Shown here: piece after piece, positions 29,100 through 30,825 of the stretch
Numbering within the stretch: the first letter of the stretch is position 1
Layout: each line of letters starts with the position of its first letter
DNA from: Candidatus Latescibacterota bacterium
GTDB taxonomy: Bacteria > Latescibacterota > UBA2968 > UBA8231
DNA: 64,000 bases
Direction of reading: 5' to 3'
NCBI GenBank assembly: GCA_965203355.1
Contig: OZ241889.1
Coordinates: forward strand, 4,032,001 to 4,096,000
Position numbers and translations under genes: made by a program
The notes under the pieces: model-generated
The model's input: the letters and a program-made list of their open reading frames with translations, nothing else
What the model was told of the DNA's origin: nothing
The model's database searches: none

Positions 29100-30248
29100 C
29101 TAAACGTGCGGCAGGCGACCTTCGAGGCCGCTGTAGGGCTGCGGGATGGCGTAGGCCGCGACCAGTTCCCCATGCGCGACGGCCTCCTCCCGGCCCGCAT
29201 CAATAGCGACCTGCACGGCACCGACATCGCCGCGGACGACAGCGGCCGTCAAGTAGTATCCCACCTTATAGGCCCCTTCGTATTCGACGGCTGCGGCCTT
29301 GAGCATCCGATCGACAGCCCGCACCAAAGCCACGGTACTGCGCGTCTCGATCAACCCCATGGCCTGCCGTGCTCCCGTGCCAAGCCCGTCGGTCGCGGTG
29401 GCAAAACGGGCGATTAGCGCGGGATCGGGCCTAGAGACTACCGCCGAGGCGTCGAGCGGCCCCAAGGCCGTGGCCAGCTCGGCCCCGGCGCACACCGCGG
29501 CCTGCACGTCGTCTAGATTACCAAGGGCCAGTGCGGCAATCCGCCCGCCGCTGCCCATGCTCAAGCGCTCGATTTGAACATCCGCGGCCTTGAGCATGGC
29601 GTCGGCGCGGCCTACGACCGAGGCATAACCAATGGTCTCTATGAGACCCAAGGCCCCGGTGGAGCGCGGCTCGACCCTTGGCGCAGGCGGCAGCAGCGGC
29701 CCTAGTCCTGCGCTGGGCTGAGGCAAAACGAGCGTCGCGTACACAGTGCCGCTCCGCTCGGCTGCTTGCCGGCCCACGGCTAGCGCGGTCTGCACGGCCG
29801 CCACATCGCCAAAGATCGGCGCGTGACACAGCGCACCGCCGATGAAAGCCCAACCCCCTAGCTCCACTTGGGCGGCCTTGAGCATGGCGTCGGCACCGAC
29901 CACTAGCGGCGTCAGGCCCTGCGTCTCCAACAAGCCAATCGCCCGCGGCTGAATCTGTTCGGCGCCGAGGCCGGCGGCGTGGGGCATGGCGTCCGTAGCG
30001 CGTGCATCCGGCCGCGGCACCACGCGCACACCAATCAGTTCGCCGGTGCGGCTCGCCTCGACCTCGCCGACGCGAATGGCCGCTTCTACATCAGCCACTT
30101 GGCCGACGATTACGGCGGTGAGCCAACCCGAACCAATGCTGTGCCGCCCGCAGATTTGCACCTCAGCGGCCTTGAGCATGGCGTCGGTGGCAGCCATCAG
30201 CGACGCCATGCCGCGCGTCTCCAGTATGCCGATCGCGCCGCTAGACAC
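29100..30248 (-). CDS. BMC shell protein with four tandem BMC domains
   Basis: Four repeats of A(I/L/M)G(I/L)(L/I)ET..D(A/R)MLKAA.V..G.V..V..A..(P/S)(R/Q)P. Confidence 0.92.
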   Translation of the reverse strand: MSSGAIGILETRGMASLMAATDAMLKAAEVQICGRHSIGSGWLTAVIVGQVADVEAAIRVGEVEASRTGELIGVRVVPRPDARATDAMPHAAGLGAEQIQPRAIGLLETQGLTPLVVGADAMLKAAQVELGGWAFIGGALCHAPIFGDVAAVQTALAVGRQAAERSGTVYATLVLPQPSAGLGPLLPPAPRVEPRSTGALGLIETIGYASVVGRADAMLKAADVQIERLSMGSGGRIAALALGNLDDVQAAVCAGAELATALGPLDASAVVSRPDPALIARFATATDGLGTGARQAMGLIETRSTVALVRAVDRMLKAAAVEYEGAYKVGYYLTAAVVRGDVGAVQVAIDAGREEAVAHGELVAAYAIPQPYSGLEGRLPHV

Positions 30249-30825
30249 CGCCCCCTCCCATCGGCACGGCGTACGCGGCCAAAACCTCGGGCCGCGGCTG
30301 TGGGATCAGGCCCGTGCTCAGCAAGTGCTCGCCGCCCGCGAGCAACTTTTGCGCGACAGCTATGGCTTCGGTAACGGCCCCTACGTCCCCCAAGACGAGC
30401 GAACACACCACGCGGTCGTGGACCGTCAGCACGTTGATTACTTCGACGGACGCTGTCTTGACCATCTGATCGTTGGTGTGAATGTGAGCCCCGTAGCCGC
30501 GCGTCTCGACCCATCCCAAGGCACCCGCGGGAAAATCGCGGTCGGACCGGACCGGAAAATCGACGAAATGGCGGCAGGCGGCAGCAGGTTGGTGAACGGG
30601 CGCGGCCACCACGTGTTCTATCACGCCGCGGGCCGCTTCTTCGCCGCTTTGCAGCGCGGCCGCCACCGCGCTGATCGATCCGGTGAGAAAGGCCGTGGTA
30701 TAGCCGCCGATGGACGACCAACCCGCGAGTTGCACCTCCGCGGCCTTGCAAGCCGCATCCGCACCCACAATGGCCGCGGCCACGCCCTGCACCTCGATCA
30801 TACCCACGGCCGGATCGCCCGCCAT
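30241..30825 (-). CDS. BMC shell protein with two BMC domains
   Basis: AVGMIE..ADAACKAAEV and ALGWVETRG..DQMVKTASV..GDVGAV..IPQP. Confidence 0.9.
   Translation of the reverse strand: MAGDPAVGMIEVQGVAAAIVGADAACKAAEVQLAGWSSIGGYTTAFLTGSISAVAAALQSGEEAARGVIEHVVAAPVHQPAAACRHFVDFPVRSDRDFPAGALGWVETRGYGAHIHTNDQMVKTASVEVINVLTVHDRVVCSLVLGDVGAVTEAIAVAQKLLAGGEHLLSTGLIPQPRPEVLAAYAVPMGGGGV

Follow-up and report, generated by a model that had tools for sequence, protein, structure and literature searches.

Within a 64-kb stretch of the genome of a Candidatus Latescibacterota bacterium (contig OZ241889.1, positions 4,032,001 to 4,096,000; hereafter the window, to whose positions all coordinates refer), a minus-strand operon for a bacterial microcompartment (BMC) contains two adjacent shell-protein genes, one encoding a 382-aa protein with four BMC domains, here called Q4 (domains Q-D1 to Q-D4), and the other, directly upstream, encoding a 194-aa protein with two, here called T194 (T-D1 and T-D2; Table 1). 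Pfam assigns four PF00936 stretches to Q4 (E 3.7e-74, 245.1 bits) and two to T194 (E 1.1e-32, 112.2 bits), the cut-off being 24.5 bits, and because the best Q4 stretch spans positions 1-75 of the 75 in the profile, the domain order is the ordinary, non-permuted one, as had been claimed in the original prediction, which was made from the DNA alone. The Q4 domains begin at about residues 5, 103, 199 and 296 when compared by BLAST with the other BMC proteins of the operon, giving a regular period of about 97 aa. The genes overlap by 8 nt (30241-30248). In the minus-strand junction sequence, GGGAGGGGGCGGTGTCTAG, a GGAGG core lies 5 nt upstream of the GTG start of Q4 and the TAG stop of T194 lies just inside Q4, which bears out the overlap and internal GGAGG described earlier; the six loop strings put forward as pore loops (SIGSGW, FIGGAL, MGSGGR, KVGYYL, SIGGY and TVHDRV) were likewise all found in the translations. 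We consider it likely that Q4 and T194 associate as a 1:1 heterodimeric, fully asymmetric pseudo-hexamer, a 4+2 shell tile; their binding in the cell, entry into the shell and role at a pore are what we infer from the conservation and the models described below.

A scan of one genome per species, using patterns drawn from Q4 only, gave 70 loci, 66 of which have a complete four-domain open reading frame (ORF), and a reciprocal scan of metagenome contigs, using patterns drawn from T194 only, gave 78 loci. These collections bear on the reading that the four-domain ORF is not a gene with its own function but an artefact, or two tandem genes fused and in decay. Among 43 metagenome loci with room for the whole of Q4, two copies are broken, L126 (244-1449) by an in-frame stop in the linker between domains 2 and 3 and L106 (3225-4428) by a frameshift before domain 4; sequencing error or a natural split of the gene may account for them. 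The other 41 have one intact ORF, however, as do the 66 complete genome loci, with orthologues of 379-394 aa, and alignments of 32-34 orthologues retain 64-67% mean column identity and 68-71 invariant columns. Furthermore, a contig from another study matches positions 29061-31251 with 0 differences, and a sponge-metagenome relative (about 97% alike) differs by 61 substitutions with no indel in Q4 or T194, its sole indel being an in-frame 18-nt deletion at 31098, within the gene for a Cys-rich protein. The suspicion that the fusion arose in assembly is thus answered by an independent identical contig and by the intact genome loci, and we regard artefact or decay as effectively refuted, its probability being negligible. 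The stop in L126 falls exactly in the linker between domains 2 and 3 and, if real, would give a 2+2+2 arrangement.

A word-indexed search yielded 725 proteins related to Q4 at E<=1e-3, well outside what chance would give; the best 120 of these are mostly of 369-404 aa, with a few down to 285 aa, and are 54-93% identical to it. Gemmatimonadetes and Latescibacteria metagenome-assembled genomes are present among the source names, and the record titles place its members widely among uncultured Latescibacterota and Gemmatimonadota. When 1.84 billion representative proteins were searched with a profile, 62 matched at E<=1e-30. Among the best 150 representatives, 48 had one BMC domain, 80 had two, 21 had three, one had four and none had five or more, and the sole full four-domain cluster was the Q4 family itself (P0121). 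Of the 21 three-domain rows, six come from incomplete proteins of the Q4 family and one from an incomplete tandem protein, leaving 14 that are genuine and full-length.

These natural three-domain BMC proteins, of 283-330 aa, fall into fourteen 50%-identity clusters (P0128, P0133-P0140, P0147, P0158, P0170, P0174 and P0182) and show no close relationship to the Q4 domain clades, being 29-61% identical to the labelled domains; a pair of such chains would make up a complete hexagon (2 x 3). Eight loci from the genome scan (L047, L049, L050 and L055-L059) contain ORFs of 495-621 aa that were considered as six-domain fusions and rejected, as they are over-extended ORFs which overlap T194 in another frame and have four domains each.

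Pairing of the two genes across loci

The association of the two genes holds in both directions. A two-domain ORF lies directly upstream of Q4, ending within a few nucleotides of it, in all 66 complete genome loci, among which there was no four-domain homologue without its partner, the situation in which the original prediction would have been in difficulty. The remaining four of the 70 loci are cut by contig ends, and three of these still show the two-domain gene before a truncated Q4. Reciprocally, Q-D1 comes next after the T194-type gene in 57 of the 57 metagenome loci with at least 200 nt downstream. In a further 10 loci there are fewer than 200 nt downstream and the start of Q4 is still visible in four, and the last 11, in which T-D2 is missing, have a truncated gene or match weakly through genes of the type of T186, the second tandem BMC protein of the operon. 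The distance from the T194 stop to the Q4 start is -8 nt in 35 of the 66 genome loci, as in the window, -1 nt (TGATG) in eight and between -4 and +14 nt in the remaining 23.

T186 raises the question of whether T194 is the dedicated partner, since Q4 might fill its two empty positions with either of the two proteins, producing several kinds of 4+2 tile. Both are two-domain and non-permuted, the T186 gene shares the operon with Q4 in the window and in the majority of main-type loci, throughout which the operon gene order is kept, and BMC paralogues can mix, as described for CcmK hetero-hexamers (PMC6788708). The halves of T186 are, however, 54-65% identical to plain BMC-H, so that it looks like an ordinary bulk tile, whereas T194 occurs only with Q4 in the 57 informative metagenome loci. 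Moreover, a whole clade of loci (L034-L038, L040, L041, L043, L045-L048, L050 and L051) carries T194, Q4 and the aldolase-like gene that follows them without T186 within 8 kb. We searched three related genomes, reached through their loci, for PF00936 domains, and genome G001 (behind L036) contains eight in total, namely the six of T194 and Q4 and those of two single-domain BMC-H genes about 2.2 Mb away; T194 is therefore the only tandem protein available there. Free exchange of T194 and T186 thus appears very unlikely to us.

A predicted ring of six different domains

AlphaFold2 models of the single chains had a predicted local distance difference test score (pLDDT) of 89.6 for Q4 and 91.5 for T194 and a predicted template modelling score (pTM) of 0.88 for each, a value at which all four Q4 domains are confidently placed relative to one another. 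When the Q4 model was compared with the Protein Data Bank (PDB) using Foldseek, the best matches were chains of 6NER, a synthetic tandem BMC-H fusion, with a template modelling (TM) score of about 0.9 normalised to the two-domain target, and adjacent Q4 domains therefore sit like hexamer neighbours. The same entry was the best PDB sequence match (E 2.9e-34) and, at 213 aa, the longest matched chain; no PDB chain with more than two BMC domains was matched.

The complex of Q4 and T194 was modelled with ESMFold2 in three runs, with a 32-row alignment for each protein taken from the same loci. The interface score ipSAE had a median of 0.81 (0.80, 0.81 and 0.85), against 0.00 for the best of three controls. 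Of 80 solved complexes, 58 attained that mark, as did two of 110 mismatched pairs, a comparison that is rough only as our own alignments were supplied. The runs agreed in at least 89% of contacts, with a partner pLDDT of at least 88. Confident contacts were predicted between T-D1 (residues 7-87) and Q-D4 (303-360) and between T-D2 (109-142) and Q-D1 (6-90), and the pairs of lowest error, Q305-T44 and Q44-T111, represent the same contact type at both joints, so that the modelled ring runs Q1-Q2-Q3-Q4-T1-T2 with one handedness. G137 of Q-D2 also touches the partner in the model, which we read as loops meeting across a narrow pore.

The six domains are clearly distinct from one another. In a quick IQ-TREE run on 167 domains from the window and 20 other loci (21 gene pairs), Q-D1, Q-D2, Q-D3, Q-D4, T-D1 and T-D2 each formed one clade, with Shimodaira-Hasegawa-like approximate likelihood ratio (SH-aLRT) supports of 96, 98, 89, 98, 100 and 99, respectively, and the six-way differentiation is therefore old. 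The stems of T-D1 and T-D2 are very long (1.84 and 1.52), and the deep branches are poorly supported (SH-aLRT 84-91). Every one of the six domains retains the motif D-x-x-x-K in 104-105 of the 105 gene pairs; we take its Lys to correspond to K26 of PduA, a tile-to-tile contact residue, and if so, all six domain edges would be competent for tiling. Invariant residues, judged from the 32-34 aligned orthologues, are concentrated in each domain's own loop. The conserved loops of Q4 are GRHGIGSGW (Q-D1), GWAFIGGAL.H (Q-D2), GSGGR (Q-D3) and KVGY(Y/F)LTA (Q-D4), and those of T194 are GW.SIGG(Y/F)TT (T-D1) and the glycine-free VLTVH(D/N)RVVC (T-D2). Of the earlier proposal of a 1:1 asymmetric tile with a custom pore, closure of the ring is thus supported by the complex model, and the custom pore is suggested by these six different, individually conserved loops.

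Some residues of these loops vary together. In an analysis of covariation by mutual information with average product correction across the 105 gene pairs (effective number about 53 sequences), the pore-loop pair of Q4 residue 332 and T194 residue 137 ranked seventh, the combinations being Tyr/Asp in 37 gene pairs, Phe/Asn in 63, Phe/Asp in five and Tyr/Asn in none. Among the loop strings listed, T194 residue 42 (Tyr or Phe) mostly tracks these states, with a few exceptions, so that the set reads Tyr/Tyr/Asp (residues Q332, T42 and T137) in the clade of the window and Phe/Phe/Asn elsewhere. The three residues would lie on three neighbouring positions of the predicted ring, a pattern that fits a shared pore.

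Several observations weigh against the 4+2 tile. The covariation of the pore-loop residues may rest on one or a few phylogenetic events, and covarying inter-protein pairs were not enriched at the predicted interface, where three of the top 50 pairs fell against 1.4 expected and four of the top 200 against 5.5 expected; this global analysis is too shallow to be informative and we have counted it neither way. The complex score may partly reflect likeness to solved hexameric BMC rings, and rings are what modelling would be expected to give for BMC domains in general. As the controls were unrelated proteins, the complex model shows the pair folding as a closed ring and not a preference of T194 for Q4 over T186 or over self-association. 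A six-domain single-chain, or 'Rosetta stone', fusion of the pair was absent from the 70 genome loci. Finally, the domain tree weakly joins T-D1 to the first domain of T186 and T-D2 to the second; T194 is probably descended from a type that assembles as homotrimers, an ability that it might have retained.

The last point leads to the alternative that three Q4 chains form a 12-domain unit, each chain being shared, two domains apiece, between two pseudo-hexamers that lie next to or on top of one another, so that tiles are stapled together and T194 makes a homotrimeric tile of its own. The arithmetic of the ring is satisfied (3 x 4 = 12), the three Q4 linkers are of similar length, so that a crossing between domains 2 and 3 is not forbidden by linker length alone, and the ordinary tandem protein with which the T194 domains weakly group is of a trimer-forming type (PduT). 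Such a unit leaves unexplained, however, both why T194 should adjoin Q4 so strictly and be translationally coupled to it and why the T194 domains, with their long stems, are so derived, and the confident Q4 monomer model and the complex model that closes a ring with T194 speak against it. The double ring or bridge, which the original prediction had offered as its alternative, is in our estimation unlikely, and it fits the coupling and the models less well than the 1:1 tile does.

According to the 1:1 reading, the overlapping, translationally coupled genes would yield Q4 and T194 in near-equal amounts. Q4 would form a 240-degree arc and T194 would fill the remaining 120 degrees, closing one flat ring of about 58 kDa (38.7 + 19.6 kDa) in the order Q-D1, Q-D2, Q-D3, Q-D4, T-D1, T-D2 and back to Q-D1. 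This tile would enter shell facets like an ordinary BMC hexamer or trimer, a fit expected because all six domains keep the edge motif. As the ring would have no internal symmetry, its central pore would be lined by six different loops, where side chains of Tyr, His, Arg and Asp/Asn would stand singly among small residues, an arrangement impossible in a symmetric tile.

The operon and its surroundings

All genes of the operon are on the minus strand, in the transcription order acylating aldehyde dehydrogenase (AldDH), BMC-P, PduL, T186, BMC-H, Cys-rich protein, T194, Q4, an enzyme of the dihydrodipicolinate synthase/N-acetylneuraminate lyase (DHDPS/NAL) family, a DAO-family oxidoreductase and a second DHDPS-like ORF (Table 1). 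The PF03319 pentamer protein BMC-P, PduL, the acylating AldDH and BMC-H thus share an operon with Q4 and T194, as expected of a genuine BMC locus, and the locus is likely to encode an aldehyde-type metabolosome with the DHDPS-family protein as the likely signature enzyme. Taken together, the DAO-family gene, the second DHDPS-like ORF and the divergent fumarylacetoacetate-hydrolase-family gene suggest an uncharacterised type of metabolosome with such a signature enzyme.

Table 1. Positions of the shell-protein pair, its domains and selected residues, and of the surrounding genes, in the window. Q4 domain limits were taken from the hidden Markov model envelopes of an orthologue of the same length.
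Feature	Position	Strand	Details
Q4 gene, four-domain BMC shell protein	29100-30248	minus	382 aa, 38.7 kDa, GTG start
T194 gene, two-domain BMC partner	30241-30825	minus	194 aa, 19.6 kDa, ATG start
Coupling junction	30241-30258	minus	GGAGG 30254-30258; Q4 GTG 30246-30248; T194 TAG 30241-30243
Q4 domain 1 (Q-D1)	29979-30239	minus	about aa 4-90; predicted pore loop HSIGSGW; D22/K26
Q4 domain 2 (Q-D2)	29691-29945	minus	about aa 102-186; predicted pore loop WAFIGGALCH; D120/K124
Q4 domain 3 (Q-D3)	29400-29657	minus	about aa 198-283; predicted pore loop SMGSGGR; D216/K220
Q4 domain 4 (Q-D4)	29109-29366	minus	about aa 295-380; predicted pore loop YKVGYYLT; D313/K317
T194 domain 1 (T-D1)	30559-30813	minus	about aa 5-89; predicted pore loop WSSIGGYTT; D23/K27
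T194 domain 2 (T-D2)	30268-30525	minus	about aa 101-186; atypical glycine-free loop VLTVHDRVVC; D119/K123
Covarying pore-loop residue, Q4 332	29253-29255	minus	
Covarying pore-loop residue, T194 42	30700-30702	minus	
Covarying pore-loop residue, T194 137	30415-30417	minus	
Fumarylacetoacetate-hydrolase-family gene	34240-35487	plus	divergent from AldDH end
Acylating aldehyde dehydrogenase (AldDH)	33144-34571	minus	
BMC-P	32830-33144	minus	
PduL	32155-32826	minus	
T186, second tandem BMC protein	31557-32117	minus	two-domain, non-permuted
BMC-H	31280-31543	minus	87 aa
Cys-rich protein	30829-31275	minus	148 aa, without Pfam family; gene before T194
DHDPS/NAL-family aldolase-like enzyme	27934-29085	minus	PF00701, E 9.9e-58, residues 69-352; about 65-aa N-terminal extension
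DAO-family FAD oxidoreductase	26860-27933	minus	
Second, weaker DHDPS-like ORF	25886-26860	minus	operon end

The DHDPS-family gene comes after Q4 in 64 of the 66 complete genome loci, with no match in the other two (L052 and L065). The N-terminal 50 or so residues of the enzyme (28936-29085) resemble the N-terminus of the Cys-rich protein (31126-31275), with 33% identity over 48 aa (E 2e-8). This shared module has no Pfam match even at E<=10, and the one NCBIfam match, with the C-terminal end of TIGR02536 'eut_hyp', is weak; we speculate that it is a candidate shell-binding or encapsulation element. The Cys-rich protein has eight Cys residues in its middle part and is kept between BMC-H and T194 in main-type loci.

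In the clade that lacks T186 within 8 kb (e.g. L036:7423-10347), T194, Q4 and the aldolase gene form a satellite that stands apart from other shell genes, beside unrelated catabolic genes that include those for a PhyH dioxygenase, a Zn-ADH, a protein of the DAP-epimerase fold and a member of the MR/MLE enolase superfamily. The combination of an enolase-superfamily dehydratase with an aldolase hints at an acid-sugar pathway yielding pyruvate and an aldehyde. Since the DHDPS-family gene follows the pair so regularly and stays with it in the satellite loci, the putative tile would be expected to serve the pathway of that enzyme, where it might act as a tailored, asymmetric channel through which a metabolite of the aldolase pathway passes or as a unique docking position in the shell.

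Elsewhere in the window, and unrelated to the shell genes, are a minus-strand gene for a 525-aa leucine-rich-repeat protein (38065-39642) and a plus-strand gene for an 880-aa protein with a Peptidase_M28-like region and a C-terminal Antibiotic_NAT (aminoglycoside 3-N-acetyltransferase) domain (39866-42508).

Relation to known shell tiles and significance

The closest known counterparts are the BMC-T(s) proteins (PduT, PDB 3n79 and 3pac, and the CcmO type), in which non-permuted PF00936 domains likewise follow one another head to tail with short linkers and six domains make up a tile. T194 on its own has exactly this two-domain layout, whereas Q4, with four domains, falls outside a class of two domains per chain, and while two types of domain are arranged with three-fold symmetry in the known, homotrimeric tiles, the proposed tile would have six types and no symmetry. 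The NCBIfam CcmO and PduT models match below their own cut-offs. Tiles made from the products of more than one, adjacent, gene are known from beta-carboxysomes, where the hetero-hexamers CcmK3/CcmK4 and CcmK1/CcmK2 are proposed to tune shell properties and are described as assemblies of single-domain paralogues of variable, often low stoichiometry that are less stable than the homo-hexamers (PMC6788708). Q4 and T194, in contrast, are multi-domain fusions, and in the proposed tile the fusion would fix both the 4+2 stoichiometry and the order around the ring, with all six positions different. In 6NER, from the Haliangium ochraceum shell, covalently linked neighbouring BMC-H domains still tile into shells, to judge by the entry title, but the protein is engineered, its two domains are identical and it forms trimers.

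Five hexagonal building blocks are distinguished in the main text of a 2021 catalog, none of which has more than two domains in a chain (PMC8217296). The literature searched, including passages of PMC8217296, PMC4207490 and PMC4454575, contained no account of BMC proteins with three or four domains, although the supplementary locus tables of the catalog may list the genes, and the literature searched on BMC shells of Gemmatimonadetes and Latescibacteria yielded no paper describing such proteins. The architecture of Q4 and T194 is real, conserved and apparently undescribed. On balance we favour the view that a natural, genetically fixed asymmetric tile would constitute a new class of hexagonal building block beside those five, with a six-loop channel or binding site and six unique edges and faces.

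Current thinking assigns the control of shell permeability and cargo docking in BMCs to the symmetric pores of homo-oligomeric tiles. If the proposed tile is real, evolution also uses pores free of symmetry, in which His, Arg or Tyr is arranged singly instead of in three or six copies. Six non-equivalent loops would provide a channel or binding site beyond the reach of any symmetric tile, and positions in the shell would become singly addressable. The tile would also be a natural scaffold with one copy of each position, of the kind that engineers have built artificially (6NER), and, if the natural three-domain proteins are included, the ways in which BMC domains divide the hexagon would comprise 6x1, 3x2, 2x3 and 4+2. 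Finally, through its tight link to an uncharacterised DHDPS-family enzyme, the Q4 family also marks a type of metabolosome that is as yet unstudied.

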